Source: Actinomycetes bacterium (GTDB taxonomy: Bacteria > Actinomycetota > Acidimicrobiia > Acidimicrobiales > RAAP-2). From it: a stretch of DNA of 64,000 bases. The position numbers and the translations under genes were made by a program. Below are positions 2,496 through 54,540 of the stretch, piece after piece. The notes under the pieces are model-generated. The model made no database searches, was not told the origin of the DNA, and saw only the letters and a list, made by a program, of their open reading frames with translations. Position 1 is the first letter of the stretch. Each line of letters begins with the position of its first letter. The stretch is from the NCBI GenBank assembly GCA_021782915.1, contig JAJXUK010000003.1:18937-82936 (forward strand). The letters run 5' to 3'.

Positions 2496-5000
<2,505 letters not shown>

Positions 5001-5098: not shown

Positions 5099-6073
5099 GT
5101 GAATCCGCTCGATCGACTTCGTCTGCCCCTAGTCGAGGCGGACCTGCTGCGCCTGGAATCCCTGCTGGCCGAGTCGGTCATCTACGGCGACGAGTACCTG
5201 GACAAGGTCACGACGCACCTGATCTACGCGGGCGGCAAGCGCCTGCGCCCGCTGCTGGCGCTGGCCTCGGCGACCGGGGGCGAGCGCGAGGCCTCGCGCG
5301 AGGACCTGCTCGGGGGCGTCTCGCTCGAGCTGATGCACCTCGCCTCGCTCTACCACGACGACGTCATGGACGAGGCCGAGGTGCGCCGCAACGTCGACAG
5401 CGTGAACGCGCGCTACGGCAACCTGGTGGCCATCGTGGCCGGCGACTACCTCATGGCCCGCTCCGCGGGCATCGCCGCCGACCTGGGCACCGCCATCGCC
5501 GGGCTGATGGCCCACACCCTGGCCTGGCTCACGCGGGGCCAGGTCTCCGAGGTGCGCACGGCCTTTTCGACCGAGCGCACCGAGGACGACTACTTCGAGG
5601 CCATCGGCGGCAAGACCGCCTCGCTCATGTCCGCCAGCTGCCGCGTGGGGGCCCTCACCGCCGGGCGCCCCGAGGACCAGCTGGCCGCGTTGACCGAGTA
5701 CGGGCGCTGCTTCGGCATGGTCTATCAGCTGCGCGACGACATCCTGGACGTCACGGCCGTGGACAACCAACTGGGCAAGCCCGCCGGACAGGACCTGGCC
5801 GAGGGCATCTACAACCTGCCCACCCTCTACGCGCTGCGCGACGAGCACGTGGGCGACGAGCTGCGCGCCCTGCTCGGTCAGGTACTCAACGACGACGACC
5901 GCGAGCGCGCGCGCAAGCTGGTCGTGGCCACCGACGGGGTCGCCCAGACGAGGCAGGCGGCCCAGCGCTTCCTCGACGAGGCCCACACGGCGCTCGCCGT
6001 GCTGCCCCAGGCGCGCCTGGCCGAGGGCTTCTCCTCGCTCATCACCTGGTTGCTCGAGGACCTGCCGGCCTAG
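5099..6073 (+). CDS. polyprenyl diphosphate synthase family protein
   Basis: 324 aa, GTG start. First and second Asp-rich motifs LYHDDVMDE and LRDDILD. Chain length cannot be read from sequence. Confidence 0.85.
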   Translation: MNPLDRLRLPLVEADLLRLESLLAESVIYGDEYLDKVTTHLIYAGGKRLRPLLALASATGGEREASREDLLGGVSLELMHLASLYHDDVMDEAEVRRNVDSVNARYGNLVAIVAGDYLMARSAGIAADLGTAIAGLMAHTLAWLTRGQVSEVRTAFSTERTEDDYFEAIGGKTASLMSASCRVGALTAGRPEDQLAALTEYGRCFGMVYQLRDDILDVTAVDNQLGKPAGQDLAEGIYNLPTLYALRDEHVGDELRALLGQVLNDDDRERARKLVVATDGVAQTRQAAQRFLDEAHTALAVLPQARLAEGFSSLITWLLEDLPA

Positions 6074-13160: not shown

Positions 13161-14060
13161 TCAGCGTAGTGGAGTCGTCTCCCGCAGGCTCAGGCCCTGG
13201 CGGCGTCGCGAGAGCCGACGCGCGCCGCTGAGCTCGGTCGCCACCACCTCGCCGAGCACCACGCGCGTCGCGCGCTCGACCTCCTCGGCCGAGGGAGGGT
13301 GCACGCCGTCGGGCTCCTCGCGCGCGAGCACGACGCGCAGCCAGCGCCGCAGGCGAGCCACGGGCCAGGTCGCGAGCTCGCGACAGTCGGCCTCGCCCAG
13401 GCCCAGACGGGCGTCCTCGGCCGTGAGGGCGCCCAGCCAGGCCCGCTCCTCGCCCGCCAGGTGCGCCAGACGCGCGAGCAGGACCGCTACGTCGCGCTGG
13501 GCGACGTCGTTGAGCAGCGGCAGGACCTCGGCGCGCACGCGGTTTCGCCGGTAGCGCGCATCGGCGTTGGTCTCGTCGCGACGCGCCTGCAACCCGGCGG
13601 CCTCCACCACCGCCGCCACCTCGCCACGGCGCAGGTAGAGCAGGGGCTTGCTCTCGTCGCCCACCATCGGGGAGATCCCGTCGAGGCCCGCGCCGCGCAG
13701 CAGGTTCAGCAGGACCGTCTCGGCCAGGTCGTCAAGGGTGTGCCCGGTCATCACCCCCACCGGCAGCGCCGCGCGACGCGCGGCGCGTGCGCGGGCCTCG
13801 AAGTTCGCTCCCGGGCCAACGCGCACGTCGTGCACGCTCACCGGCACGCCCCAGCGCTCGGCGAGCTCGACCACGAAGGCCGCGTCCGCGCCGCTCGTGG
13901 GACGCGCGTGGTGATCCACGTGGTGCAGGTGCACGAGCAGCCCGGCCTCGCGCGCGAGCAGGGCCAGTCCGAGCGAGTCGGGCCCACCCGAGACCGCGAG
14001 GTCCACGGGCGTGCCGGGCGCCGGGAACCGGCACGAGGCCAAGAGCGCGTCGCTCGTCAC
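13161..14060 (-). CDS. tilS: tRNA(Ile)-lysidine synthase
   Basis: 299 aa. PP-loop DLAVSGGPDSLGL. Upstream of hpt as in most actinobacteria. Confidence 0.85.
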   Translation of the reverse strand: MTSDALLASCRFPAPGTPVDLAVSGGPDSLGLALLAREAGLLVHLHHVDHHARPTSGADAAFVVELAERWGVPVSVHDVRVGPGANFEARARAARRAALPVGVMTGHTLDDLAETVLLNLLRGAGLDGISPMVGDESKPLLYLRRGEVAAVVEAAGLQARRDETNADARYRRNRVRAEVLPLLNDVAQRDVAVLLARLAHLAGEERAWLGALTAEDARLGLGEADCRELATWPVARLRRWLRVVLAREEPDGVHPPSAEEVERATRVVLGEVVATELSGARRLSRRRQGLSLRETTPLR

Positions 14061-14069
14061 GGGCCAAGA

Positions 14070-14893
14070 CTAGGCAGGCTGTCGCGCGCGTCGCGCGAGA
14101 GCCCCCGCACGCAGACGCGCGAGCAGGTAGGCCAGCGAGGCCAGCGCGGTGATCCAGAAGCTCACCGGCCCGCCCACGCCCACCGCGAGGAAGAGCCCGA
14201 CCCAGCCGCTGAGCAGCGCCAGGCCCATCGAGCCGATCAGCGCGTCGAGCGGACGGCTGGTGAGCACCTCGGCCGCCGCCGCCGGGGCCACCAGCAGCGA
14301 GAAGACCAGGAGCACGCCGACCACCTGGACCGCGACCGCTGTCGTCACGGCCAGCAGCGACATGAACACGAGGGACATCGCGCGCACCGAGAGCCCGCGC
14401 GCCGCGGCCGACTGGGCGTCCACCGAGGCAAAGAGGAGCGGGCGGAACACCACGCTCACCGCGAGACCCACCAGCACGCTGAGCAGGGCCACGAGACGCA
14501 GGTCGCTGCTCGAGACCCCGAGGATCTGGCCGAAGAGGATCGAGTAGGTCGCGTTCGCGTAGCCGCGATAGAGCGAGATGAACAGCACGCCCAGACCCAG
14601 CGCCGCGGTCAGCGTCACGCCGACCACCGCGTCGCGGTCGTCGAGCTCGGCGCCGGCCGCGCCGATCACGAGTCCGGCACCCAGGCAGAAGACGAGCAGG
14701 CCGAAGATCGGCGAGAGCCCGAGCAGGACCGCGCCGGCCGCGCCGGCGAAGCCGATGTGCCCGACCGCGTGGGCGGCGAAGGCCTGGCGGCGCAGCACGA
14801 CGAAGTAGCCCACCGCACCCCCGGCCAGGGCCACGACGGTGACCGCCCAGAAGGCGTTCTGCACGAAGGACGTGGACAGCAGCTGCCAGAAGC

Positions 14894-14897
<4 letters not shown>
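14070..14897 (-). CDS. metal (Zn/Mn-type) ABC transporter permease, ABC-3 family
   Basis: 275 aa, polytopic and hydrophobic (FWQLLSTSFVQNAFWAVTVVALAGG...). In an operon with the ATPase and the cluster-9-type binding protein. Confidence 0.8.
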
Positions 14898-15780
<883 letters not shown>

Positions 15781-15790
<10 letters not shown>

Positions 15791-16677
15791 CCCTCCGTGG
15801 TCAACGCCGCACGGATCTGGGTGATCGTGCGCCCGATCCAGGCCGGGTAGTCACTGCCGCGCATCGTCTCGGTCACCCGGATGACCGGCACGCCGTTGGC
15901 CTCGGCCACGGACACCATCTGGGCGGTCAGCGGCGTGGCGGTCTGAACGTTGTCGATCAGCAGGGCCGGGTGCTGGCGCAGCTGGCCCAACGCCGTGGCC
16001 AGATCGGCCACCGACGGGTCGACCCCGTTGCCCACCGCGAGGCGCAACGCCTCCGGGGTCACCACGCGCAGGCCCATCGCACTGAGCAGGTAGCCCGTGA
16101 CGTCCTCGGTGGCCGCCACGGGCACCCCGGCGCAGCTCGCCCGCAGGTCGCTGACCTGGGCCTGCAGCCGAGCGATCCGGGCGAGCACGGCGCTCGCGCT
16201 CGCCTCGAGGCGCCTCGCGCCCAGGCGCGGCGACTCCAGGGCCACGAGGCGCTCGACGAATCGCCGCGCGGCGGCCAGGTCGTAGAACACGTGCGGGTTC
16301 CGCCCGGCACTCACGCCCACCAGGGCGGCCACGTCGATCACCGGCGGCGGGCTCGGGCGGGCCGCGACCAGCTGGCTGAGCCAGGTGTCGTAGCCGGCGC
16401 CGTTCTCAATCACGAGGGTGGCCTCGGCGACCCGCGCGGCGTCCGTGGTCGTGGCCTCGTGGTCGTGCGGGTCGGCGTTGGGATCGCTCAGCAGCGTCAC
16501 CACGTTGGCCGACGGGCCCAGCACGTCGCGCGCGAGAGCACCCCACTGGGTGACCCCCGAGACCACGACCGGCACGCGAGAACTCGGCACGCGCAGCCCG
16601 AGCACGGCCATGCCGGCCATGACCCCCAGGGCCAGCACGAGTGCCACCACGCGTAGGAGCGACTTGCTCGGAATCAT
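15781..16677 (-). CDS. metal ABC transporter substrate-binding protein (ZnuA/TroA-like)
   Basis: 298 aa from ATG 16677 (MIPSKSLLRVVALVLALGVMAG signal/anchor). NADPHDHE and NPHVFYD metal-site-like motifs. The longer ORF-track start at 17085 overlaps the Fur gene on the opposite strand. Confidence 0.8.
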
Positions 16678-16688
16678 TCCAGTCAGTG

Positions 16689-16709
16689 TATCCAGAATCA
16701 TTCTAGATA
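16689..16709. promoter_or_regulatory. candidate Zur/Fur operator in the divergent promoter region
   Basis: AT-rich 10-1-10 inverted repeat TATCCAGAAT-C-ATTCTAGATA with one mismatch. It lies in the 60-nt gap between the ABC operon start (16677) and the Fur-family gene start (16738). The core GAATCATTC resembles actinobacterial Zur boxes. Confidence 0.55.
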
Positions 16710-16737
16710 GCAAGCCCGCCGTCGATAGACTGTCGAC

Positions 16738-17130
16738 GTGGTCCAGACGCGCAACACGCTCCAGCGCCGCGAGGTCATCGCCACCCTCGAGCGCGCTCAG
16801 GGCTTCCTGAGCGCCCAGGACCTGCACGCGATGATCGTGCAGCGGGGGGGGCGGATCTCGCTGGCCACCGTGTACGCCCAGCTCAGACGCCTGGCCGAGG
16901 ACGGCGCGCTGGACGTGATCATGAGCGATCGCGGCGAGAGCCTCTTTCGTCGCTGCGGGGTGGAGGTGCACCATCACCACCTGGCCTGTCGCGACTGCGG
17001 TGCGACCATCGAGGTGCCCACCCCCGACCTCGACCAGTGGTCGCGCGAGATCGCGACGCGCTTCGGCTACCGCGACGTGCGCCACGTCTTCGAACTCTCC
17101 GGGATCTGCCCCGCGTGCCAGACGAGCTGA
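16738..17130 (+). CDS. Fur-family metalloregulator (Zur-like)
   Basis: 130 aa, GTG start. Winged-helix N-domain (RREVIATLERAQGFLSAQDL), HHHH run, and two CxxC pairs (CRDC, CPAC). Divergent from the metal ABC operon. Confidence 0.8.
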   Translation: MVQTRNTLQRREVIATLERAQGFLSAQDLHAMIVQRGGRISLATVYAQLRRLAEDGALDVIMSDRGESLFRRCGVEVHHHHLACRDCGATIEVPTPDLDQWSREIATRFGYRDVRHVFELSGICPACQTS

Positions 17131-17162
17131 ACCCGAGCTGGGAGCGTCGCGGGGCCCTCGGG

Positions 17163-17873
17163 GTGCTGAGCCTGGGCCTGCGCGAATGGGGGGTGGACGC
17201 GGTCATCACCACGCGCGCCGGCGGCGTCAGCGAGGCCCCGTACGACTCGCTCAACCTGGCCACGCACGTCGGAGACGACCCGCACCGCGTCCAGGTGAAC
17301 CGGGCCCGCCTGGCCGCGGCGATGCGCGTCGGCCCGGAGCGCCTGGTGAGCGTGGCCCAGGTGCACTCCAACGAGGTGCTCGAGGTCGAGGGCCCCGTGA
17401 CGGGCCAGGCCGACGCGCTCGTGAGCTCCTCGCGAGACCTCGCCGTGATGGTTCTGGTCGCCGACTGCCTGCCGATCCTGCTGGTGGACGCGGCGCAGCG
17501 ACGCGTGGGCGTCGTGCACGCCGGCTGGCGCGGCCTGGCCGCCGGGGTCATCGCGGCAGCCGTGGAGCGCTTCGAGGATCCCGCCCGCGTCCTCGGCGTC
17601 GTCGGGCCGGGGATCTCGGTGCGGGCCTACCAGGTCGGCCCGGAGGTCGCCCGCCACTTCTCCGAGGTGCCCGGCGCGCTGGCCTCCGACCACGGGGACC
17701 GCTCACGTCTCGACCTGCGCGTGGTGGCCCTCGCCCAACTCGCCGCGGCCGGCCTGGCCGCCGAGCGAGTGCGCTACGTGCCCGCGGCCACCGACGGCGG
17801 TGCGCGCTTCTTCTCGGACCGCGCAAGTCGGCCCACCGGTCGCTTCGCGCTCAGCGCACGAGTCCTAGCATGA
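17163..17873 (+). CDS. pgeF: YfiH/PgeF-family protein (peptidoglycan editing factor / laccase-domain protein)
   Basis: Motifs TTRAGGVS, NLATHVGDD, VADCLPILL and VVHAGWRG. The start is uncertain: in-frame GTG 17163 is chosen, while CTG 17127 or the ORF-track start 17037 would overlap the Fur gene. Confidence 0.8.
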   Translation: MLSLGLREWGVDAVITTRAGGVSEAPYDSLNLATHVGDDPHRVQVNRARLAAAMRVGPERLVSVAQVHSNEVLEVEGPVTGQADALVSSSRDLAVMVLVADCLPILLVDAAQRRVGVVHAGWRGLAAGVIAAAVERFEDPARVLGVVGPGISVRAYQVGPEVARHFSEVPGALASDHGDRSRLDLRVVALAQLAAAGLAAERVRYVPAATDGGARFFSDRASRPTGRFALSARVLA

Positions 17874-17880
17874 GGGCGCC

Positions 17881-19167
17881 ATGACGACGCCGCGCCGCGC
17901 CGAGGTCTTCGCCTACCGCGGCCTGCAGGTCGAGGGCACGACCCTGTCTGCGCACTACCGCCTCGACGAGATCGACTTCACCGAGCTCGTCGAGTTCGAG
18001 GGCGTCGAGAGCCTCGGGGCCCCGGCGCGCGCGGTGGCCACGCTCTGGTACCTCGTGGCCGGGCTCTCCTACTACAAGGCCGGGGCCGCCCGCGTGATCG
18101 ACCTGGGCGAGACGCCGGTGGGTCCGGCCGCGCGCGCCCTGCTCGCGGCCAGCCTGCACGACGGGCTCGGCGAGTTCAGCGTGGTCAACGACCTGTCCCT
18201 CGAGGACGTTCAGATCATCGGCGGCGCGCGCGGCGCGCGAGAATCGGCCGACCTGGACGCGACGCGGGTGCTCGTGCCCTTCGGCGGCGGCATCGACTCG
18301 GTCGTCAGCCTCGAGTCGCTGAGCCCGTCCCTTCAGCGCGCGCTCTTCATCGTGTCACCGGCGAGCGGGCGCTTCAGCGCCCTCGAGGCGACGGCGGCGC
18401 TGAGCCGCCTCGAGATCGTGCGCGCCACGCGATCCCTGGACGAGCGACTGCTCAGCGGAGACGCGTCCTTTCTGCGCGGGCACGTCCCGGTCACGGCGAT
18501 GGTGACGCTGCTCGCGGCGACCGCGGCGGTGGCCAGCGCACGCGGCGGCGTCGTGATGAGCAACGAGCACTCGGCGTCGGTGCCGAATCTGACCTGGCGG
18601 GGCCGGCCGATCAACCACCAGTGGAGCAAGTCCCTGGCCGCCGAGGTCCTCTTGTCCAACGCCCTGGACGAGAGCGTCACGTCGCTCAGCGTGGCGAGCC
18701 TGCTGCGCAGTCGCAGCGAGATCTGGGTCGCCGAGCGCTTCAGCCGGCTCACCGACTACCACCCGGTCTTTCGCAGCTGCAACCGCGCCTTCGCCCAGGA
18801 CCCGGCGCGCCGCTTGAGCAACTGGTGCGGCGAGTGCGACAAGTGCCTCTTCATCGCCCTGGTGCTGGCTCCCTTCGTGGCCCGCGAGCACCTCGCGGGC
18901 ATCTTCGGCTCCGAGCCCCTGGCCAACCCCGAGCGTCGCGACCAGCTCGAGGTGCTCGTCGGCCTGGGTGCGACGCCCAAGCCCTTCGAGTGCGTGGGCG
19001 ACCCGCACGAGAGTGCCGCCGCGCTGGCCGCGGTGGCGGCCGATCCGGCCTGGGCCGATGTCGACTACCTGCACGAGGTGGCTGTGCGCCTGAACTCGCC
19101 GAAGAGTCTCGACGAACTGCTCACGCCCCGAGGACCCAGCCGTGCGCCGGCCCACTGGCTTCGCTGA
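17881..19167 (+). CDS. murL: MurL-like protein (putative UDP-MurNAc-L-Ala-L-Glu epimerase)
   Basis: 428 aa. PP-loop-like VPFGGGIDSV and C-terminal Cys cluster NWCGECDKC. Overlaps the following Mur-ligase gene by 26 nt. The assignment rests on gene pairing and size, not on a search. Confidence 0.55.
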   Translation: MTTPRRAEVFAYRGLQVEGTTLSAHYRLDEIDFTELVEFEGVESLGAPARAVATLWYLVAGLSYYKAGAARVIDLGETPVGPAARALLAASLHDGLGEFSVVNDLSLEDVQIIGGARGARESADLDATRVLVPFGGGIDSVVSLESLSPSLQRALFIVSPASGRFSALEATAALSRLEIVRATRSLDERLLSGDASFLRGHVPVTAMVTLLAATAAVASARGGVVMSNEHSASVPNLTWRGRPINHQWSKSLAAEVLLSNALDESVTSLSVASLLRSRSEIWVAERFSRLTDYHPVFRSCNRAFAQDPARRLSNWCGECDKCLFIALVLAPFVAREHLAGIFGSEPLANPERRDQLEVLVGLGATPKPFECVGDPHESAAALAAVAADPAWADVDYLHEVAVRLNSPKSLDELLTPRGPSRAPAHWLR

Positions 19168-20437
19168 GCTCGCGGGCCGGCGCGTGGGCGTCTTCGGCTA
19201 CGGCGTCGAGGGCCGCGCCAGCGCGAGGCGCCTGGCGAGCGTCGCGGCGAGCCTCGTGATCGTGGACGACGAGCCAGTCAGCGACGAGGTGATGGTCACG
19301 AGCGCCGGGGGCCTCGCGGCCCTAGCCACGTGCGAGGTCGTGCTCAAGAGCCCGGGCATCCCACGCCGGCGCGCGGACGTGCTCGAGCTCGAGGCAGCGG
19401 GCGTGATCGTGACCTCCTCACTGAACCTTTGGCTGCACGAGGCGCCGCGCGAGCGAGTGATCGCCGTGACGGGCACCAAGGGAAAGTCCACCACCACCAG
19501 TCTCATCAGCTTCTTTCTCGACAGCCTGGGCCAGGAGGCGGCCAGTCTGGGCAACATCGGACGGCCTCCCTACGATCCTGAGGCGCCGAGCCCGGCGGGC
19601 TGGCTCGTCCTGGAGGTCTCGAGCTTCCAGGCCGTGGACCTCGACCGAGCTCCCGCGTTCGTCGTGGTGACCTCACTCGGCAGCGACCACCTTGACTGGC
19701 ACGGCTCGCTCGAGCAGTACTGGGCGGACAAGCTCTCCCTCACTCGCGCCCGCGGCGAGCACCACACGTACGTGACGCCGTCAGTCCTCTCGCTCGCGGC
19801 AGACCAGCTCGGTGGCGAGATCCACGTCGTCGAGCCCGATGACGCGGGACTCGCCGAACGACTCGGCCTCTTGGGTCAGCACAACAGGTCCAACGTGGCC
19901 CTGGCCCTCACCGTCGTCGCCAACGTGCTCAGGCGAGATCACGGCGACGTACTCGCTGCCGTATCCGAGGACGCCGAGAGCTTCGTGCCCTTGCGCGGTC
20001 GACTCACGCTACTGGGTGAGGAGCATCTCACACACGGGCGGCTGCGCTACGTCGACGATGGTCTGGCCACCGCACCCCTTCCCACCATCGCGGCCCTGGA
20101 AGTCTTCCCCAACGAGTCACTCGCACTCATCGCCGGCGGCTTCGATCGTGGCGTCGACTACGCGCCCCTCGTGGACGCCCTCCTGGAGCGCACCTCTCCG
20201 ACAATTCTGATCACGATGGGAGCGGCCGGTGAGCGGCTCGGGTCCCTGGCGCGACAGAGCGGGTTGCGAGTACGCAGCGTGCAGGATATGGCCGAGGCGG
20301 TCGCAGCGGCTCGCGAGGCTCTCGTGGCGGGCGGCGTGGTCCTCTTCTCACCCGCGGCACCGAGTTTCGACCGCTATCGCAACTGGCTGGAGAGAAGTGA
20401 TGACTACGCGGCACAGATCCGGACGAGCGCTTCCTGA
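19142..20437 (+). CDS. murD2: MurD-type Mur ligase outside a dcw cluster (putative UDP-MurNAc-L-Ala--L-Glu ligase MurD2)
   Basis: 431 aa. N-terminal Rossmann VGVFGYGVEGRA, ATP P-loop VTGTKGKSTT, Mur-ligase middle and C-domains (SLGSDHLDWHGS). Mur ligase family is certain; the MurD2 subtype is inferred. Confidence 0.6.
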   Translation: MRRPTGFAELAGRRVGVFGYGVEGRASARRLASVAASLVIVDDEPVSDEVMVTSAGGLAALATCEVVLKSPGIPRRRADVLELEAAGVIVTSSLNLWLHEAPRERVIAVTGTKGKSTTTSLISFFLDSLGQEAASLGNIGRPPYDPEAPSPAGWLVLEVSSFQAVDLDRAPAFVVVTSLGSDHLDWHGSLEQYWADKLSLTRARGEHHTYVTPSVLSLAADQLGGEIHVVEPDDAGLAERLGLLGQHNRSNVALALTVVANVLRRDHGDVLAAVSEDAESFVPLRGRLTLLGEEHLTHGRLRYVDDGLATAPLPTIAALEVFPNESLALIAGGFDRGVDYAPLVDALLERTSPTILITMGAAGERLGSLARQSGLRVRSVQDMAEAVAAAREALVAGGVVLFSPAAPSFDRYRNWLERSDDYAAQIRTSAS

Positions 20438-20450
20438 TGGCACTTCGATC

Positions 20451-21815
20451 TCACGCAACGTCCGCAGCCTCGCTCGACGTGAGTCGGGCGCCCAGGGCGC
20501 TGACAGTGGCCCGGCGCCACCGTAGGGCACCCCACGCCAGGAGCATCAACGCGCTCATCCGGAACATGACTGCCCCTTCGAGCATGTGCCGGTCCGTCTC
20601 CTGACCGGAGGTGTCCCACGCGGCCAGCATGGTTGCCACGCCGATCACACCCAGTGCGATCAGGATCCACGTTGTGCGATCCACTCTCCTCAGCAGCATG
20701 AATCCGAGAAGTATGCCGAGGAGAGCCTCGCCCACGCACCAGCGCCAGCCGGGATAGAGGAGCGCGGACCACGGTGCATCAGTGCGGTTGGGCGCCGCGT
20801 ACACGAGCACGTTGCCCCCATCGGAGTAGTACGCCCAGCCCGGGTGAGCGATCGGATCACTGAGCAGTGTGAGTGGGTGCGTGAGGAGCCACTGCACGTA
20901 CAGTGATTCTCCGTGTGACGCCAGCCACGAAGTGACGACCGGCGAGGTGGCGATGACCACCTTGCCCGATGGGCTGGCCGGCGTCCGTGCCGCCTGCCGA
21001 TCGATGCCGGGCGCATCCGGCATGCCGTGGGCGGCGAACCACGCCACTCGGCCGGGAAGCGGGAAGACGCGCGTCGCGTAGAGTGACGGCATCTCCAGCG
21101 AGGTGACGCCGGACTGCTTCGCGAGCCCGCTCGAGAGCAGAGCCACTAGGAGCAGCAGCCCGAAGAGGACGACACCCCGCCTGCGAGAGCGGTCCGGGCG
21201 TCGTCGGCTGACATCAACAACGAGCACGACGAGAGCCACGAGAGCCACGGGGACGATCTGGGAGTAGCGAACAAGGACGTTCAGGAGTGCCGCCAGGACG
21301 ACATACGCGGCCTGACGAGTGGAGCCCCCGCCCGCGTATCTCAGAACTGCCGCCATCAGCACGGCGACCGCGCTGAGCGCCAACGAATCCGACAGGACCG
21401 ATCGGTTCCAGATCATGACGGGTGCGCTGGAGGCAAATACGAGCACCAGGACTGTGGCTGATGCTCGGCGCAGAAGCCCGGTGAAGAACGTGGCGAACGT
21501 TGAAGCGAGGAACAGCCACGACGCAACGAAGATGACCGACTGGGCGAGCGTGAAACCCGACGCACCACCCGTGAGCTTCCACAACAGCGACGTCAGCGGT
21601 GGCTTTATGCCGTACCAGAATCGAGCGCTCCAGATAGGCAGTCCCGCCTGGGCCTGGTAGAGGGTGGTGTCGGGCCACAGACGGGCCGGCGTGATGGTCG
21701 CTTGCCACACGATGTACCAGGAGAAGGCGACAGCGAGCGAGCGCTGCACCCACCACTCGTCCTCGCGGGCGTGACGTACCTGCGCTAGCCAGCCGCTCAG
21801 CCCACGCTCCGCCAT
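20451..21815 (-). CDS. polytopic membrane protein, GT-C-like glycosyltransferase candidate
   Basis: About 454 aa from ATG 21815, preceded by GGGAGAG. About 10 hydrophobic segments, an acidic motif REDEWW before TM1, and a soluble loop before the last 3 TMs. GC is lower than the flanks. Confidence 0.45.
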   Translation of the reverse strand: MAERGLSGWLAQVRHAREDEWWVQRSLAVAFSWYIVWQATITPARLWPDTTLYQAQAGLPIWSARFWYGIKPPLTSLLWKLTGGASGFTLAQSVIFVASWLFLASTFATFFTGLLRRASATVLVLVFASSAPVMIWNRSVLSDSLALSAVAVLMAAVLRYAGGGSTRQAAYVVLAALLNVLVRYSQIVPVALVALVVLVVDVSRRRPDRSRRRGVVLFGLLLLVALLSSGLAKQSGVTSLEMPSLYATRVFPLPGRVAWFAAHGMPDAPGIDRQAARTPASPSGKVVIATSPVVTSWLASHGESLYVQWLLTHPLTLLSDPIAHPGWAYYSDGGNVLVYAAPNRTDAPWSALLYPGWRWCVGEALLGILLGFMLLRRVDRTTWILIALGVIGVATMLAAWDTSGQETDRHMLEGAVMFRMSALMLLAWGALRWRRATVSALGARLTSSEAADVA

Positions 21816-21940
21816 CTCGCTCTCCCGACTTAGAGACTCCGCGACAAGGACCTCATTAGACACCACCCTCGGAACAGCTCACACGTGCCATAGAGGACAT
21901 GAGCCTCCTCACGTCAGGGCGAGGTCGCCGCCGACCACCT

Positions 21941-22750
21941 TCAGCATCCCTTGTCCAGATCCACACCGGCGCTGCTCGTGCCACTCTGAGCCAGCCAGGT
22001 GGGCCCGCCGGCCATCTGGGAGGAGCCCGTAGTGCTCGGGCAGGCACCGCCGGCCACCCACACCCCCGAGAGCGCGGGCACCGGACGTGGTGGCGCCCAG
22101 GTGAGCGAGCCCGTGATCGATCCCCACATTGCCGGTGAGGAGTAGTAGCCGAAGGGAACGCCCGCGCTAGACATGCCGGAGGAGAGCCCGTCGATGACGT
22201 ACCGGTTCAGCGTCGTGTTGGCGGACCAGCTGTTGAGGGTCTCGACGTCCGCCCACCACGCGCTGGGCCTCCCCGGCTGCACGCCCTGGGCGTAGAGCGC
22301 CTCGGAGCAGCCGATCTCCCAGGCCTGCTGCTCCTGGGACTTCTCGTGCCGGGAGCTGCCCCACGCGACCGCGGCCGAGCCAAGGTCAGTCACGCACGTC
22401 GGGTTGATGCTCTTCGCGTACCCGCCGGCGTAGCCGGTGTTGAAGTACAGCGACCGACTGGTGATGCTCGTTACTTTCGAAGCAGCCGTCCACTCGTCGC
22501 TAGCGCACGTGTTGGCGGTGAAGGGTCGACCCCCGCCCACGCCGATGATCGCAAAGGACGCACTGCTCGGCAGCGGCGAGTTGCAGTTGGGGTACGAGAC
22601 GTCGTATCCGGTGCCGGTGTAGATGCCGCTCACGGACGCACCGGCCGGCACCGTGCCCCCGAGCAGGGCCAGCGCGCCGACGGCGACGCCGAGACGCTCG
22701 ACGAGGCGACCTCGGCGACGCGTGCTCGTCTGTCGTTGCGTGCTCAGCAT
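21941..22750 (-). CDS. secreted protein, GH25/DUF1906-like glycoside-hydrolase-fold candidate
   Basis: About 269 aa from ATG 22750. Basic N-region plus hydrophobic signal (RLGVAVGALALLGGTVPAGA), then GTGYDVSYPNCN and Cys pairs. Fold call is tentative. Confidence 0.4.
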   Translation of the reverse strand: MLSTQRQTSTRRRGRLVERLGVAVGALALLGGTVPAGASVSGIYTGTGYDVSYPNCNSPLPSSASFAIIGVGGGRPFTANTCASDEWTAASKVTSITSRSLYFNTGYAGGYAKSINPTCVTDLGSAAVAWGSSRHEKSQEQQAWEIGCSEALYAQGVQPGRPSAWWADVETLNSWSANTTLNRYVIDGLSSGMSSAGVPFGYYSSPAMWGSITGSLTWAPPRPVPALSGVWVAGGACPSTTGSSQMAGGPTWLAQSGTSSAGVDLDKGC

Positions 22751-22929
22751 GCCGGCCCCCTTGCGAATGTGCTCCACGAACAGTACGCGATCGCGCGAGC
22801 GCGCAGCGGTCACGCCCGCTCCTTTGTCGCCAGCGCGGAGACTTCGAAAGCTGATTCAGGAAGGACCTCGGCGAAGCCCGAACCCCGAGAATGCCCGCAC
22901 GCGTCGGGGCACCAGCGTGCGACGCGCAG

Positions 22930-23005
22930 TGGAGCCTGGGGTGGGAATCGAACCCACGACCTGCGCATTACGAATGCGCTGCTCTGCCGGCTGAGCTACC
23001 CAGGC
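22930..23005 (-). tRNA. tRNA-Thr (anticodon CGU), CCA encoded
   Basis: Hand-folded cloverleaf. Acceptor GCCTGGG/CCCAGGC, D-arm GCTC/GAGC, anticodon stem GCGCA/TGCGC with loop TTCGTAA, T-arm GTGGG-TTCGATT-CCCAC, discriminator T, CCA. Confidence 0.9.
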
Positions 23006-23033
23006 GTAGGGCGTCAGCCTAGCCGAGACCGCG

Positions 23034-24098
23034 CTAGAGGGCGCCCAGCGAGATCATCAAGTCGGCCAACAGGAGGGTCTCGTCGACGTTGCGTGACAGG
23101 CGTCGCGCCGCGGCGTCGATGAGCTCGAGGGCCCCGAGGGCGCCGCTCGCGCGCTGGCGGCCCCGCGCACTGGGATCCTCGAGCGCGATGGCCAGTCGGT
23201 CCCGGTAGACGCGCGCGAGCGCACTCAGGCCGAAGCGCAACTCCTCGAGGCGAAAGCGGCGCTGCTCGCGCTTGAACTGGGCCTCCAGCTCGCGCTTGGT
23301 GCCCACGCGCACCGCCTCGGCCTGGCGCCGGGCGAGCTCGCTCTCCTGCAACGCCACCAGGGGCGCCATCGCCCCGTCGAGCGCGCTGGTGATCTGGCCC
23401 ACCAGCTCCATCGCCGAGGCCGGGGTGCCGCCCAGGTGCTCGGGGACCTCGCGCCAGGTCGCGATGCGCTGGGCCAGCGCCTCGTCGGCCACGAGCACGC
23501 GGGCTCGCTGCAGGTCTCCACCGGCCGCCCCGGCGGCCAGGCGGGCGCGAGCCTCGGGGGCCCCCTCGCGCACCAGGCTCTCGAGCAGGTCCGACTCGCC
23601 CAGCGCCCGCAGGCGCACCTCGACGCATCGCGAGACGATCGTGATGAGCTCGGGCGGCGTCTCGGTCGCACTGAGCACGAAGATCGTTCGTCCGGGAGGC
23701 TCTTCGAGCGTCTTGAGCAGCGCCGGCGCCGAGGGGGCCGCGCCGCTGGTCGTGAGCTCGACGTCAGGAATCACCACGACCTGGTAGCCCTCGCCGATCG
23801 GGCGCCGACGCGCCACGCGCTCGGCCTCGCGCAGCTCGTCCACGCGCCAGGAGACCCCGGCGCGCTCGGCCACGTAGACGTCCGGGTCCGTGCCCCCCAG
23901 CACCCGGCGACAGTGCTCGCAGTGCCCGCAGCCGTGATCGGGGCACTGCAGGCCGGCGACGAGGGCCGTCACCGCCGCCTCGGCCCCCACCCCGGCGGGG
24001 GCGGTGATGAGATAGGCGTGCCCGGGATGGCGCGCGTGGTGGCGCAGCGCCGCGGCCGCCTCGGGCTGGGCGACGAGGACCTCGAAGACGTCGCTCAC
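23034..24098 (-). CDS. holB: DNA polymerase III subunit delta prime
   Basis: 354 aa from GTG 24098 (VSDVFEVLVAQPEAAAAL...). HAYLITAPAGVG, Zn module CPDHGCGHCEHC, SRC-like SRCVEV. GTGA overlap with the tmk stop. Confidence 0.85.
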   Translation of the reverse strand: MSDVFEVLVAQPEAAAALRHHARHPGHAYLITAPAGVGAEAAVTALVAGLQCPDHGCGHCEHCRRVLGGTDPDVYVAERAGVSWRVDELREAERVARRRPIGEGYQVVVIPDVELTTSGAAPSAPALLKTLEEPPGRTIFVLSATETPPELITIVSRCVEVRLRALGESDLLESLVREGAPEARARLAAGAAGGDLQRARVLVADEALAQRIATWREVPEHLGGTPASAMELVGQITSALDGAMAPLVALQESELARRQAEAVRVGTKRELEAQFKREQRRFRLEELRFGLSALARVYRDRLAIALEDPSARGRQRASGALGALELIDAAARRLSRNVDETLLLADLMISLGAL

Positions 24099-35552: not shown

Positions 35553-36653
35553 GTGGCGTACCAGGCTGAGTACATCTGGATCGACGGAACAGAGCCCACG
35601 CGCAAGCTGCGCTCCAAGACACGCATCGTCGCCGACGCCAAGGAGCCCGAGATCTGGGGCTTCGACGGCTCGAGCACGAACCAGGCCACGGGCCACTTCT
35701 CGGACTGCGTGCTCATGCCGGTCTTCAGCTGCCCGGACCCGCTGCGCGGGCCCCGCGACGTGCTCGTCATGTGCGAGGTCCTCAACCCGGACATGACTCC
35801 GCACGTGACCAACACCCGGGCGGCCGCCGTGGCGGTGGCCCAGCACTACGCGAGCTTCGTCCCGATGTTCGGCATCGAGCAGGAGTACACCTTCTTCCAG
35901 GACGGCCGGCCCTACGGCTGGCCCGAGGTGGGCTACCCCGCGCCCCAGGGCCCGTACTACTGCGGCGTCGGCGGAGCGAAGTTGCCCGGACGTCAGATCG
36001 TCGAGGCCCACACGGCGGCCTGCCTGCGCGCCGGCATCGCCATCGAGGGCACCAACGCCGAGGTGATGATGGGCCAGTGGGAGTTCCAGGTCGGGGTGCT
36101 GGACACCGTGGCCATCGGCGACCAGCTCTGGACCGCGCGCTGGCTGCTCGAGCGCATCGCCGAGGACTACGGCGTGGACGTGAGTTGGGACGCCAAGCCG
36201 ATCAAGGGTGACTGGAACGGCGCGGGCGCGCACACCAACTTCTCGACCAAGCAGATGCGCGCGCCCGGGGGCTGGGACGCGATCATCGCGGCCTGCGAGG
36301 CCCTGGGCACGCGGGTCAAGGAGCACATCTCCAACTACGGCGTGGGCATCGAGGAGCGCCTTACCGGCGCGCACGAGACGGCGCACTACACGAAGTTCTC
36401 CTACGGCGTCAGCGACCGCGGCTCGTCGATTCGCATCCCGGGCGCCGTGGCGCGCGACAAGCGCGGCTACCTCGAGGACCGGCGCCCGAACGCCAACATC
36501 GATCCCTACGTCGTGGCCCGCCTGATGGTCGAGACGGTCTGTGGCGCGGCGAGCGCGAAGGCCCCGGCCGCCACGGCGCGCGCAAAGAAGGCCGCCGCGA
36601 AGAAGGCCGCCGCGAAGAAGGCCCCGGCCGCGAGGGCCACGACGCGGCGCTAG
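35553..36653 (+). CDS. glnII: glutamine synthetase type II with Lys/Ala-rich C-terminal tail
   Basis: 366 aa, GTG start behind AAGGAG. AEYIWIDG...WGFDGSSTNQA...NAEVMMGQWEFQ typical of GSII. Tail AKAPAATARAKKAAAKKAAAKKAPAARATTRR. Confidence 0.85.
   Translation: MAYQAEYIWIDGTEPTRKLRSKTRIVADAKEPEIWGFDGSSTNQATGHFSDCVLMPVFSCPDPLRGPRDVLVMCEVLNPDMTPHVTNTRAAAVAVAQHYASFVPMFGIEQEYTFFQDGRPYGWPEVGYPAPQGPYYCGVGGAKLPGRQIVEAHTAACLRAGIAIEGTNAEVMMGQWEFQVGVLDTVAIGDQLWTARWLLERIAEDYGVDVSWDAKPIKGDWNGAGAHTNFSTKQMRAPGGWDAIIAACEALGTRVKEHISNYGVGIEERLTGAHETAHYTKFSYGVSDRGSSIRIPGAVARDKRGYLEDRRPNANIDPYVVARLMVETVCGAASAKAPAATARAKKAAAKKAAAKKAPAARATTRR
36582..36626 (+). repeat. three tandem 15-bp units encoding the (A)KKAAA tail of GlnII
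   Basis: gcaaagaaggccgcc / gcgaagaaggccgcc / gcgaagaaggccccg, read directly from the sequence. Confidence 0.8.
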
Positions 36654-36661
36654 CGCCCGAA

Positions 36662-36682
36662 GCCCGCCGCCGCCCGGCGGGC
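36662..36682 (+). terminator. GC hairpin between glnII and glnA
   Basis: GCCCGCCG-ccgcc-CGGCGGGC, 9 nt after the glnII stop. No U-tract. Confidence 0.35.
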
Positions 36683-36717
36683 GTGGCCATCTCAACGGCC
36701 GAGGGGAAGGTGCGAGA

Positions 36718-38010
36718 ATGTCCAGCATGCAGAGCCAGGCCCAGTACGTGCTGCGCACGGTCGAAGAGCGCGGCGTGCGCTTCGTGCAGCTGTGGTTCAC
36801 CGACGTGCTCGGTCGGCCCAAGGCCTTCCACGTCACCCCGGCCGAGCTGGAGGACGCCCTGGACCAGGGCATGACCTTCGACGGCAGCTCGATCGACGGC
36901 TTCTCCCGGGTGCGCGAGTCCGACGTGCTGGCGCGTCCGGACATGCCGGCGTTCCAGCTTTTGCCCTGGTACCCCGAGAGCGCCCGGGTGGCCCGGGTCT
37001 TCTGTGACATCGTCAACATCGACGGCACGCCCTTCGAGGGCTGCCCGCGCCAGCAGCTGCGCCGGGTCCTGGACCGGGCCCTGGGCGAGGGCTACACGTT
37101 CTTCGTCGCCCCGGAGATCGAGTTCTTCCTGCTCGAGTCGGCCGCCGGGCCGCCCCAGCCGCTCGATCACGGCAGCTACTTCGACCTGCTGGCCGACGAC
37201 GCGCCGAGCCAGCTGCGCCGGCGCGCGGTGCTGATGCTCGAGGAGATGGGCGTGGGCGTCGAGCACGCCCAGCACGAGGACGCGCCGGGCCAGCACGAGA
37301 TCGACCTGCGCTACACGGACGCGCTGACGATGGCCGACACCGTCATGACCACCCGCCTGCTGCTCAAGGAGCTCTCGCGCCAGGCCGGGGTCTACGCCAC
37401 CTTCATGCCCAAGCCCCTGGCCGGCGTGCAGGGCTCGGGCATGCACACGCACCTCTCGCTCTGGCGCGACGGGCTCAACGCCTTCGTGGGTGACGGCCCG
37501 TACGGGCTCAGCGAGCTGGCCTCGCGCTTCATCGCCGGCCTGGTGGCCCACGCCCCGGAGATCACCGCCGTGACCAACCAGTGGGTCAACTCCTACAAGC
37601 GCCTGGTGCCCGGCGTGGAGGCCCCGGTCGGGGCCGACTGGGCCCACCTGAACCCCGCCGCGCTGGTGCGCGTGCCCTCGGTGAAGCCGGGTCGGCTCGA
37701 CTCGACGCGCGTCGAGTATCGGGCCCCGGACCCGGCCGCCAACCCCTACCTGGCCTTCGCCGTCATCCTGGCCGCGGGCCTGCGCGGGGTGAGCGGGGCC
37801 TACGAGCTGCCCGGCGAGGGCGAGGCCACCGCCGCGCTGCCCCAGTCACTGGCCGAGGCGCTGGATCTCATGGAGCGCTCCGAGCTGCTGCACGAGACCC
37901 TCGGCGAGCACCAGGTCGAGTGGTTCCTGCGCAACAAGCGCGCCGAGTGGGACGCCTACCGGGGCCAGGTCACCCCCTTCGAGCTCGATCGGTACCTGCC
38001 GCTGCTGTGA
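36718..38010 (+). CDS. glnA: glutamine synthetase type I (about 430 aa form)
   Basis: ATG 36718 (MSSMQSQAQYVLRTVEERGVRFVQLWFTDVLG). GS beta-grasp plus catalytic domain (MPKPLAGVQGSGMHTHLSLW, NSYKRLVPG). Confidence 0.9.
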   Translation: MSSMQSQAQYVLRTVEERGVRFVQLWFTDVLGRPKAFHVTPAELEDALDQGMTFDGSSIDGFSRVRESDVLARPDMPAFQLLPWYPESARVARVFCDIVNIDGTPFEGCPRQQLRRVLDRALGEGYTFFVAPEIEFFLLESAAGPPQPLDHGSYFDLLADDAPSQLRRRAVLMLEEMGVGVEHAQHEDAPGQHEIDLRYTDALTMADTVMTTRLLLKELSRQAGVYATFMPKPLAGVQGSGMHTHLSLWRDGLNAFVGDGPYGLSELASRFIAGLVAHAPEITAVTNQWVNSYKRLVPGVEAPVGADWAHLNPAALVRVPSVKPGRLDSTRVEYRAPDPAANPYLAFAVILAAGLRGVSGAYELPGEGEATAALPQSLAEALDLMERSELLHETLGEHQVEWFLRNKRAEWDAYRGQVTPFELDRYLPLL

Positions 38011-48016: not shown

Positions 48017-48094
48017 CGGGCTGTAGCGCAGTTTGGTTAGCGCGCTGCGTTCGGGACGCAGAGGTCCCCGGTTCAAATCCGGGCAGCCCGACCA
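48017..48094 (+). tRNA. tRNA-Pro (anticodon CGG), CCA encoded
   Basis: Hand-folded. Acceptor CGGGCTG/CAGCCCG, D-arm GCGC/GCGC, anticodon stem CTGCG/CGCAG with loop TTCGGGA, T-arm CCCGG-TTCAAAT-CCGGG, discriminator A, CCA. Confidence 0.9.
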
Positions 48095-48121
48095 ACCACG
48101 GTGCGCCGTGGCCGTTGTCCG

Positions 48122-48194
48122 GCCCCCATCGTCTAGCGGCCTAGGACACCACCCTTTCAAGGTGGCGGCACGGGTTCGAATCCCGTTGGGGGTG
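48122..48194 (+). tRNA. tRNA-Glu (anticodon UUC), no encoded CCA
   Basis: Hand-folded. Acceptor GCCCCCA/TGGGGGT (G1-U72), anticodon stem CCACC/GGTGG with loop CTTTCAA, T-arm ACGGG-TTCGAAT-CCCGT, discriminator G. Confidence 0.9.
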
Positions 48195-48278
48195 CTCTGT
48201 GGGCTGAACCCCGTTCGGGGGTCCAGGTCACTGTGTGATGTGTCGCGTCATCGTGGACACGTGAACCCCTGAATCTAG

Positions 48279-48500
48279 TCACTTGGCCCTCCGCACGGGC
48301 TGGTAACTCTGGGCGGGGTCGAGCGTGGCGGCGATCAGTCTGCAGGCGTTGGCGAGAACGCGCACGTGCTCGTCGACGACGTGCAGGAAGACCCTCTGGA
48401 CCTGGCAGGCGTGTCCAACGCTGACCCAGCACGGTCTGATCAGGTCGCGCAAGGTCGCGTGGCTGTGTCGAAGGTCCCGCTTGGTGCGACTGAGCCGTGG
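48279..48500 (-). pseudogene. relic of a tyrosine recombinase (integrase) C-terminus
   Basis: Minus frame reads KRDLRHSHATL-x11-GHA-x6-FLHV. It resembles box II HxLRHTHATL...LGHA...Y.HV, but with shortened spacers and Tyr replaced by Phe. No N-terminal or box I region is present. It lies 85 nt from the tRNA-Glu 3' end. Confidence 0.4.
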
Positions 48501-48869
48501 AGACGCGGGGAGGTGGGAACTGACTTCGTCGCGTTCCGTCTTCGCGTTGCGCGGCCTTCTCGTGGCACGCGCGACGCGACGGCGGCCCTGGGCCCTGGGA
48601 GGGGAGTTCGCCACGGGTGGGGATCGACATCATGTTCGACGTACGCGAGAGCGGGCACGTCGACTGCTACCTCGACTCCACCAGCGCGAAGGCGGTGCCA
48701 GCGCTCGGGCGGACTCTCGTGTCAACCCGCAGTCTCCCGGTGCAAGAGCACCGTGTGCCACAGCGGTGACTCATCTTCTGCGAGCGCGTCGCTGCGCCGT
48801 CGTGCCATGATTGGCACACGTGCCTCGACGGCGTCGCCATTGAGGCACGCACTTCCCGGAGGGCATGGC

Positions 48870-51440: not shown

Positions 51441-51767
51441 GCCCGAGTCACAGCGCCGCCACATTCCCACCGTCGATGCTTTCTGGATGGCGCGAACATG
51501 GCGGCGACGCGCCCTGGCGCAGCGTGGGAGGCAGCCCCATTCGGTCACGCGTAGCGCTCGATGCTCTCAGTGCCCCCGACCACGATCACGGACACGAGCT
51601 GCACCTCGAGGGCCACTCGACGCGCGTCATCGAGAAGGACGGCCAGCAGGTCGAAGCGCCACCGCGCACAGTCGCCGGGTCGCCGGGCCTTCTCACGGAG
51701 GCCCACCCAGCGCAGACGGCGCACCGCGCCGGCGATCCCGTGCTTCAGCCCGCGTTGATCAGGATTT

Positions 51768-51974
51768 TCACCGACGATTGCGCAGCCACTCCGCTGGCGG
51801 CCACGTGACCAAGGGACGCCGCTCGTGCGTCGACTTCTTCGCGTGACTGGAGACCCCACACTCTCGGCAGTAGAGATGCGCGCAAGGAGGAACACCATAG
51901 ACCCGGGCCAACTCGCTGTCCGAGCAGATCATCGCGTCCACGACGTCTTCTGCACCGTTTGCCGTGAGTGGCAT
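51768..51974 (-). CDS. small Cys-rich ORF of unknown function (possibly part of a decayed gene)
   Basis: 68 aa, MPLTANGAEDVVDAMICSDSELARVYGVPPCAHLYCRECGV... ATG is preceded by AAGGGAGAG. The reading could continue in the +1 frame after GGTGAAAATCC into ...RWRFDLLAVLLDDARRVALEV. Confidence 0.3.
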   Translation of the reverse strand: MPLTANGAEDVVDAMICSDSELARVYGVPPCAHLYCRECGVSSHAKKSTHERRPLVTWPPAEWLRNRR

Positions 51975-54161: not shown

Positions 54162-54540
54162 GGAGCACACCCTTTCCGAGGGTCCGGTCACGTCACCCAC
54201 CGTCGACCAAGCGTCGGTCGAACCGCCAGGGCATCCTCCGCGGCCGCATCACCTCACTTCAGGGCCCGCACTCGCGCGCTCGTCGCGCGACGGGCCACAT
54301 CCTCTCGCCCCGTAGGACGAGCCAGCCCCGCGCGTGTCGCCGAGTCCCCACGGGCGCTCTCGAGGAGAGCGCCGGAGACGCCTCGCGTCATCCCTGTCCG
54401 GCGCCGCTCGGTCGAAACACACACTGGCATCAGCCGACCAACCCACGCCGCCGCCCAAATCATGGGCACCACCCGCTGCTGGCTACTAGGGACTTTCGAC
54501 CCTATTCTCAGAGCGGAGCCGGTGATCAGGGATCCCGGGT

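Follow-up and report, generated by a model that had tools for sequence, protein, structure and literature searches.

The window analysed here is a 64-kb stretch (about 72% G+C) of contig JAJXUK010000003.1 from an Actinomycetes bacterium, and its nearest relatives are metagenome-assembled genomes (MAGs) of Acidimicrobiales/Acidimicrobiaceae. On its minus strand lie tilS, znuB, znuC and znuA, followed on the plus strand by a Fur-family regulatory gene (zur), pgeF, murL and a Mur ligase gene, and then by two convergent genes and a tRNA-Thr gene. The four plus-strand genes are tightly packed and span positions 16738-20437:

16738-17130, plus strand: zur, Fur family, 130 amino acids (aa), first gene of the unit
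17115-17873, plus strand: pgeF (YfiH/Cu-oxidase_4), 252 aa
17881-19167, plus strand: murL, 428 aa
19142-20437, plus strand: MurL-linked MurD-family ligase (MurD2-type), 431 aa

The junctions are a 16-nt overlap between zur and pgeF, a 7-nt gap between pgeF and murL, and a 26-nt overlap between murL and the ligase gene. An earlier note, made from the sequence alone, had given the last overlap exactly, whereas the 8 nt that it placed between pgeF and murL must be corrected to 7. The sequence GAGGG spans the pgeF stop codon (stop at 17873) ahead of the murL ATG at 17881, and the GTG of the ligase gene at 19142 lies inside the murL open reading frame (ORF), 7 nt after a Shine-Dalgarno-like GAGGA. 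Through these overlaps and the short gap the genes would be translationally coupled.

The four genes probably constitute an operon, zur-pgeF-murL-murD2, three of whose products would be active at positions 1 and 2 of the peptidoglycan stem peptide. The ligase, of MurD type, would add L-glutamate to UDP-MurNAc-L-Ala, after which MurL would convert this L-Glu residue to D-Glu, probably by adenylating the alpha-carboxylate with a QueC-like PP-loop core; the present analysis establishes family and fold, and the chemistry is borrowed from published work on Xanthomonas MurL. The PgeF amidase would remove mis-built UDP-MurNAc-amino acid precursors, a substrate suggested by its family and its catalytic residues. 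Read most simply, the linkage would let three successive stem-peptide functions of the cytoplasm be expressed together. Zinc-responsive transcription and L-Glu specificity of the ligase are inferences from sequence, as would be any pathway-specific role of PgeF. No dcw gene and no murI was detected among the scanned genes of the window, some small ORFs lying outside the scan, in agreement with the earlier note, which had placed the module away from any dcw cluster.

MurL and the linked ligase

The 428-aa protein matches the NCBIfam MurL model NF041275 over nearly its full length (E=1.2e-73, profile positions 27-438 of 447), and precomputed Pfam annotation divides it into MurL_N and MurL_epimerase_C. 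These matches uphold the identification as MurL made in the earlier note. One observation weighs against it, a score of 248 bits for an equivalog cut-off of 700. The cut-off was set for Xanthomonadales; distant MurL homologues of the proteobacterial type reach only 337-519 bits on the same model. The elements of murL considered below are:

18283-18300, plus strand: PP-loop-like GGGIDS, aa 135-140
18559-18579, plus strand: SNEHSAS
18613-18630, plus strand: NHQWSK
18778-18780, plus strand: Cys300
18826-18846, plus strand: CxxCxxC (Cys316, Cys319, Cys322), within NWCGECDKC, aa 314-322
Cys371 of the murL product

The stretches VPFGGGIDSV and NWCGECDKC, already singled out in the earlier note, are both present in this ORF. 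Among the residues that are invariant in alignments of 28 and of 50 diverse MurL homologues are G135-G136-G137-x-D139-S140, E229, S231, N245-H246-Q247, K250, S299-C300, W315-C316-x2-C319-x-K321-C322 and C371. The corresponding family motifs (GGGxDS, SNExS, NHQxSK, SC, WCxxCxKC and ECVG) are all found in the MurL of the window.

In an AlphaFold2 model of the protein (pLDDT 95, pTM 0.94), GGGIDS is flanked by the first strand (126-133) and the first helix (138-146) of a Rossmann-like domain. A Foldseek search with the whole protein returned nothing at E<=1e-3, the weak matches of highest probability being PP-loop enzymes. When the core (residues 120-345, pLDDT 90) was excised, it matched QueC (7-cyano-7-deazaguanine synthase) of B. 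subtilis (3bl5) with E=8.9e-6 and TM scores of 0.64/0.72, followed by TtuA, Cap9, ThiI, LarE, argininosuccinate synthase (ArgG), NAD synthetase (NadE), ArtA (a nitrile synthetase) and TilS; every one of these is a PP-loop ATP pyrophosphatase. PP-loop families of Pfam matched none of the 50 MurL homologues, even at E values up to 10. The protein is thus a full-length match to the MurL profile that resembles PP-loop enzymes by fold and not by sequence profile.

Beyond being the best structural match, QueC shares with the MurL core an xGGxDS loop, rich in glycine, that follows the first strand and a C...CxxCxxC cluster that follows the nucleotide-binding domain, and both enzymes activate a carboxylate with ATP, MurL releasing AMP. 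The cysteine cluster of QueC binds zinc, so the four-cysteine cluster of MurL is probably a structural zinc site as well. Unlike QueC, MurL has additional N- and C-terminal domains and a glycine in place of the first serine of the PP-loop motif; it acts on a UDP-muramyl dipeptide and brings about epimerisation instead of amidation or nitrile formation.

In reviews, MurL is described as a protein without known domains that needs ATP and Mg2+ and releases AMP, for which adenylation of the alpha-carboxylate has been proposed (PMC8788868, PMC5808125). The structural model supports a QueC-like PP-loop ATPase core, with a probable zinc site, and such a core would fit this published and unexplained ATP-to-AMP epimerisation; the suggestion of the earlier note that a PP-loop would suit an adenylating epimerase gains support from the same match.

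Several clear members of the MurL family (P0294, P0296, P0314, P0327, P0333, P0389 and P0443) are named 'endonuclease domain-containing protein' by NCBI, which looks like a propagated misannotation.

The protein encoded after murL carries, as described earlier, a MurD-like N-terminal Rossmann segment (VGVFGYGVEGRA) and a P-loop:

19472-19492, plus strand: P-loop GTKGKST, aa 111-117 of the ligase

It scores 259 bits on the murD model TIGR01087 (cut-off 212), contains Mur_ligase_M and Mur_ligase_C, and has MurD enzymes as its best solved relatives, with E values down to 4e-36. Near the glutamate site, MurD2 of Xanthomonas oryzae (Xoo) differs from E. coli MurD at Glu197/Asp182, Arg358/Lys348, Pro433/Ala414 and Phe435/Leu416; Glu197 and Arg358 control its stereospecificity, and E. 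coli MurD gains acceptance of L-Glu by the substitution K319T (PMC8788868, PMC5808125). These positions were located in the window ligase by way of E. coli MurD and of the MurD2 of X. albilineans, the latter taken from its genomic locus. The X. albilineans residues E203, R364, P439 and F441 correspond to the published Xoo numbering plus 6 throughout, and this constant offset indicates that the mapping is sound.

The ligase of the window has Asp182, Leu308 (Lys319 of E. coli), Arg336 (Lys348), Pro407 (Ala414) and Phe409 (Leu416). Four of the five published or implied residues, Arg336, Pro407, Phe409 and the non-lysine Leu308, are therefore of the MurD2 type. At E. coli positions 182/183/319/348/414/415/416 the window ligase and 68 of the 76 actinobacterial MurL-linked ligases read D-H-L-R-P-S-F, compared with D-H-K-K-A-S-L in E. 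coli MurD and E-H-I-R-P-S-F in the ligases of Xanthomonas and Thermoleophilaceae.

The aspartate at position 182 speaks for a different assignment, in which the ligase would be a conventional MurD adding D-Glu and the MurL homologue would do something other than epimerise the ligase product. Xanthomonas MurD2 has glutamate at this position (Xoo-197), E. coli MurD has the same aspartate as the window, and the published E197D mutant of the Xanthomonas enzyme shifts towards D-Glu (PMC8788868, PMC5808125); passing the canonical murD model points in the same direction. Several lines of evidence oppose this assignment. Arg336, Pro407 and Phe409 agree with MurD2, and Leu308 stands in place of the very lysine at which substitution opens E. 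coli MurD to L-Glu. Aspartate occurs at position 182 in all 76 actinobacterial MurL-linked ligases, and the actinobacterial pairs of Micromonospora and Salinispora are reported to be active in vitro. A search with a MurL profile of the Actinomycetes type did not recover the MurL of Micromonospora or Salinispora and returned only soil and Streptosporangiaceae MAG proteins.

The ligase gene is also translationally coupled to murL and universally adjacent to it among actinobacterial loci, and natural MurL-ligase fusions exist: four single polypeptides of 819-898 aa (P0180, P0253, P0257 and P0139) consist of an N-terminal MurL and a C-terminal Mur ligase, and P0180 was present in two independent sources. 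A D-Glu-adding ligase is consequently very improbable in our estimation. The enzyme is most likely a MurD2-type ligase that uses L-Glu, an assignment for which the residues, the coupling, the adjacency and the fusions form the main basis and which agrees with the pairing with MurL proposed earlier.

PgeF and the conservation of the linkage

The product of pgeF matches PF02578 with E=7.7e-62 over profile positions 1-234 of 238, and YfiH structures of E. coli and Shigella align with it at E values of about 1e-39 with their motifs in register (about 40% identity to the E. coli protein over 220 residues). The catalytic-site residues His84 (QVH), Cys118 (ADC) and His135 (VHAGWRG) are intact. A marginal miss on the NCBIfam equivalog TIGR00726 (131 bits for a cut-off of 141.15) counts against the assignment; the profile match and the conserved His-Cys-His set agree with the YfiH/PgeF type recognised in the earlier note. 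That note was right that the gene begins in contact with the Fur-family gene, and the start codon is the GTG at 17115 and not at 17163, as judged from the public gene call and from conserved start codons in relatives. In these relatives pgeF starts within the last part of zur, 16 (or 22, 10 or 4) nt from its 3' end, in several loci at the sole possible start, and the conserved N-terminal motif of PgeF comes at a fixed 69-87 nt from the zur stop.

The linkage was studied in 80 actinobacterial species loci compared by tblastn; they were found with actinobacterial patterns only and are biased towards relatives of the window. The counts do not represent independent events, because the loci are related and were chosen for similarity to the window. 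Adjacency of murL and the ligase gene was seen in every evaluable actinobacterial locus and in five of six other loci sampled. Immediately upstream of murL, on the same strand, pgeF was present in 65 of the 80 loci; the spacers range from -47 to +117 nt and mostly fall within -13 to +25 nt. Among the remaining 15, one was not evaluable, three had pgeF elsewhere in the locus and 11 had no pgeF nearby. The joining of a murL-murD2 pair to the editing factor, first noticed in this single sequence, is therefore a conserved arrangement.

The 65 loci take in nearly all of those from Acidimicrobiales, together with loci of Kineosporia, Streptosporangiaceae and Nocardiopsaceae, where MurL is 42-47% identical to that of the window and the flanking genes are unrelated. 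One locus (L071, 3282-6698) places pgeF last, as murL-murD2-pgeF, where it shares 4 nt with the ligase gene, so the linkage survives rearrangement. The exceptions comprise Geodermatophilaceae, a Frankiaceae MAG and a few others, in which the neighbours of murL are unrelated regulators or transporters. No pgeF stands beside murL in the six further loci, from Xanthomonas, Thermoleophilaceae, Sericytochromatia, Ca. Uabimicrobium, Bdellovibrionales and Thiotrichales; five of them lie outside Actinomycetota, Thermoleophilaceae being an actinobacterial family. Together with the exceptions, these loci indicate that the three-gene unit is a widespread speciality of a subset of Actinomycetota and not of the pathway itself.

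A 739-aa protein (P0127) that resembled a PgeF-MurL fusion was rejected as such. Its contig bears a split murD and a fused hpt-folE, as is typical of long-read frameshifts, and for this reason it was counted as adjacency only.

The conserved association raises the question of whether PgeF has a task specific to this pathway, that is, whether it clears un-epimerised or mis-ligated UDP-MurNAc-L-Ala-L-Xaa in addition to errors of MurC at position 1. The three genes stay together across class-level divergence, down to MurL identities of about 42% and with completely changed flanks, and the cluster withstands the change of gene order in L071, both of which speak for such a task. Several facts argue against it. 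The Xanthomonas, Thermoleophilaceae, Sericytochromatia, Bdellovibrionales, Thiotrichales, Geodermatophilaceae and Frankiaceae carriers manage without an adjoining pgeF, and the catalytic residues of the window protein are ordinary. In addition, ylmD/yfiH lies downstream of ftsZ in many bacteria, so that pgeF is found among cell-wall and division genes well beyond carriers of this unit. PgeF/YfiH of E. coli is an editing amidase acting on mis-built UDP-MurNAc precursors, with an essential Cys107, and its published activity is the cleavage of Ser or Gly at position 1 (PMC12280929). We regard a pathway-specific task as improbable and prefer co-expression of consecutive functions. The window gene differs from its E. 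coli counterpart in its place in an operon with murL-murD2, its overlap with zur and its score slightly below the equivalog cut-off. The genetic coupling of PgeF, an editing enzyme defined only recently, to the L-Glu route in most actinobacterial carriers hints at a wider proofreading role.

Relatives of MurL form 2,105 clusters at 50% identity (E<=1e-3) and occur in Actinomycetota, Proteobacteria, Sericytochromatia, Bdellovibrionales, Planctomycetota and further groups; at least 596 actinobacterial GTDB species representatives were matched in a single scan that used actinobacterial patterns. MurD2/MurL has been put forward as a target for narrow-spectrum antibiotics and was believed to occur in only a few genera; the distribution found here is much wider.

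Two of the loci outside the 80 have unusual surroundings. In Ca. Uabimicrobium (Planctomycetota; L088, 4001-5356) the MurL homologue has no adjoining Mur ligase and is followed by a small methyltransferase-like gene; some members of the family may therefore act in another context. In a Thermoleophilaceae MAG (L086, 7009-7797) an Aminotran_4 gene directly follows murL-murD2 and overlaps the ligase gene. Aminotran_4 is the family of D-amino-acid and branched-chain aminotransferases, and this locus may combine two routes to D-Glu.

Zur, operator-like boxes and transcription

The region upstream of pgeF contains the following features, the transporter genes having been assigned by the Pfam ABC-3/ABC_tran/ZnuA set on public gene calls for the identical contig:

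14070-14897, minus strand: znuB
14894-15790, minus strand: znuC, with a His-rich C-terminal tail
15781-16701 (alternative start 16677), minus strand: znuA
16670-16680, znuA-zur intergenic region: Zur-type box 1, GGAATCATTCC
16694-16704, znuA-zur intergenic region: Zur-type box 2, AGAATCATTCT
16726-16731, plus strand: -10-like hexamer TAGACT, 6 nt before the zur GTG

The Fur-family protein (PF01475, E=2.9e-26) has as its closest solved relatives FurB/Zur of M. tuberculosis (2O03, E=2.5e-33, 118 bits) and Zur of S. coelicolor (3MWM, E=1.8e-32, 115 bits), whereas Fur, PerR and Nur structures score 59 bits or less. By sequence, gene 16738-17130 is an actinobacterial Zur orthologue. Divergent from it, znuACB (14070-16701, minus strand) encodes a zinc-uptake ABC transporter, an arrangement that is kept in relatives. 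The ZnuC ATPase ends in the His-rich tail HPHPHGHQHELDAPGEHHDDEPAHSHH, possibly an extension that senses or binds metal.

Both boxes are palindromes centred on GAATCATTC, with their centres 24 bp apart. The pattern GAAYSRTTC has three matches in the window where 0.5 are expected, a number reached in none of 100 shuffles. The same pair of boxes, with exactly the same 24-nt spacing, precedes zur in about 30 related species, with a consensus of about TGGAATCATTCCA. The 'Zur-box promoter' of the earlier note is thus borne out as a sequence feature. In these relatives the putative operators adjoin zinc-uptake genes, either ZnuABC or, in some, a ZIP transporter. When the intergenic regions of relatives are aligned, a TAnnnT hexamer recurs 6-8 nt ahead of the zur start, and such proximity suggests that zur is transcribed with little or no leader. 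A scan of 16500-20800 for sigma-70 consensus promoters and intrinsic terminators detected neither; such a scan is uninformative for an actinobacterium of 72% G+C. Across 14000-24000 there was no match to a regulatory RNA of Rfam.

The third match to the core pattern, GAATCGTTC at 4986-4994, lies at the 5' end of a clpC-like gene (2496-5000, minus strand) and upstream of a polyprenyl synthase gene (5099-6073, plus strand). Being present in a single copy, it may be due to chance.

Transcription of pgeF-murL-murD2 would most likely start from the promoter before zur, which would be shared with the divergent znuACB and contains the two Zur-type operators; expression would therefore rise when zinc is scarce. 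The conserved boxes and the gene junctions support a single zur-pgeF-murL-murD2 transcript under Zur autoregulation. In a profile search of all ORFs, a Fur-family gene was found directly upstream of pgeF in 38 loci, all in the clade with MurL identities of 52% or more to the window protein (38 of 45 evaluable loci), and in all 27 loci with an analysable zur-pgeF junction the pgeF start overlaps the zur stop. Moreover, zur stays joined to pgeF in L038 and L049, in which a co-directional ZIP-type transporter takes the place of znuACB, and in L012 and L018, which have no znuACB.

In L038 (about 4030-4860) and L049 (about 4090-4870) the gene in place of znuACB is of the ZIP family (ZupT-like) and has an upstream TGATAATGATTCTCA-type box, giving the order zupT-zur-pgeF-murL-murD2, all in one direction.

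Against zinc control of the module stand several considerations. In seven close relatives tilS is the immediate upstream neighbour of pgeF, and both zur and the boxes are missing; no Zur box was found upstream of pgeF in relatives that lack zur (L019, L026, L031, L044, L064 and others). In more distant Acidimicrobiaceae znuACB-zur lies at a distance of 1.5-3 kb, beyond a MerR-like gene and a gene on the opposite strand. Finally, a presumably essential pathway would hardly be repressed completely when zinc is ample, and hence basal or internal transcription must exist. The absence of boxes from zur-less relatives means that zinc control is not intrinsic to the module, and its zinc link may be an accident of the lineage. 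Read-through from zur, as proposed earlier, is accordingly favoured by the gene overlap and the operator-like boxes, and the tie to metal status holds at most for part of the family.

These considerations could be taken further. The neighbourhood of zur might have little or no regulatory consequence, with the boxes controlling znuACB and modestly autoregulating zur, and with pgeF-murL-murD2 expressed essentially constitutively through leaky read-through or an internal promoter after a lineage-specific insertion of zur between tilS and pgeF. The tilS-pgeF neighbourhoods, the separated znuACB-zur loci and the presumably essential D-Glu pathway all accord with this scenario. It is harder to reconcile with the overlap of zur and pgeF in 27 of 27 junctions, where several loci leave pgeF no other start, and with the retention of pgeF by zur when the transporter genes change. 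Nor was any promoter-like motif seen in the 3' part of zur, in a scan poorly suited to high-GC actinobacteria. We consider the constitutive scenario rather unlikely, and a real zinc response of the zur-led operon plausible from the conserved junction and boxes.

Relation to known systems and other features of the window

The MurD2/MurL route was described in Xanthomonas oryzae (XOO_1320/XOO_1319) by Feng et al. 2017 and has been reviewed (PMC8788868, PMC5808125). MurL/MurD2 activity has been demonstrated in vitro for Xanthomonas, Micromonospora and Salinispora, so that some actinobacteria (Micromonosporaceae) are included (PMC8788868, PMC5808125). The locus of the window has the same two families, in the order murL then ligase and with overlapping genes; the MurL invariants are kept, and the ligase shares with the X. 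oryzae enzyme the Arg, the Pro, the Phe and the absence of Lys at E. coli position 319. It differs in its host, an Acidimicrobiia, a class not listed in those papers, and in the Asp for Glu at Xoo-197. It differs also in having pgeF and zur upstream, where X. albilineans has a lysC/lysA-type fusion and no pgeF nearby.

A similar comparison can be made with the actinobacterial Zur regulons, those of M. tuberculosis FurB/Zur and of S. coelicolor Zur with znuACB. The regulator is orthologous, a zinc importer is adjacent, and AT-rich palindromic operators occupy a divergent promoter. In contrast, the genes joined to zur here are neither zinc-uptake genes nor genes for zinc-free paralogues; they encode peptidoglycan-precursor enzymes, two of which probably require zinc.

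The MurL family is already recognised by Pfam, NCBIfam and JGI annotation. In the literature searched, which left out most subscription papers, we found nothing on a pgeF-murL-murD2 cassette, on a zur-led operon of this kind with operators, or on a QueC-like fold of MurL, consistent with the earlier note, which knew of no description of the three-gene unit. Since the MurL/MurD2 pathway is published, actinobacteria included, only the linkages with pgeF and zur are new at the level of gene organisation.

In one clade the module would form the downstream part of a zur operon, which would be unusual, as zinc-requiring cell-wall enzymes would stand under a regulator of zinc starvation. A bolder proposal combines this with the dedicated role discussed above: in many Actinomycetota PgeF would serve the L-Glu route by clearing mis-ligated or un-epimerised UDP-MurNAc-dipeptides, and in Acidimicrobiales the module would belong to the Zur regulon, zinc scarcity raising PgeF and the Cys4-bearing MurL. 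We hold this combination to be quite unlikely; if true, it would couple stem-peptide synthesis to metal status through two zinc-requiring enzymes, PgeF and MurL. The known biochemistry is unchanged unless experiments confirm these leads.

Elsewhere in the window, the sole other peptidoglycan-related gene seen encodes an L,D-transpeptidase (YkuD and PG_binding_1; 60698-61405, minus strand). Directly downstream of murD2, two minus-strand genes (20451-22813) lie in a stretch of lower G+C content (66%, compared with about 72%) beside tRNA-Thr (22930-23005, minus strand). They encode a polytopic membrane protein of 454-471 aa without a Pfam match and a secreted protein of 290 aa, and neither is present in any related locus examined; the stretch may be a small island inserted beside tRNA-Thr.

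Two overlapping plus-strand ORFs (35553-36653 and 36541-38010) both match the N- and C-terminal domains of glutamine synthetase, the first match being partial; they may represent two paralogues, a frameshift or a mis-called start. Genes for tRNA-Pro and tRNA-Glu (48017-48195) are followed by another stretch of about 66% G+C, within 48017-54200, which may also be an island. The stretch includes a gene (52698-54200, minus strand) for a 500-aa protein whose repeats are of the Calx-beta and beta-propeller (Ldl_recept_b/DUF5050) types.

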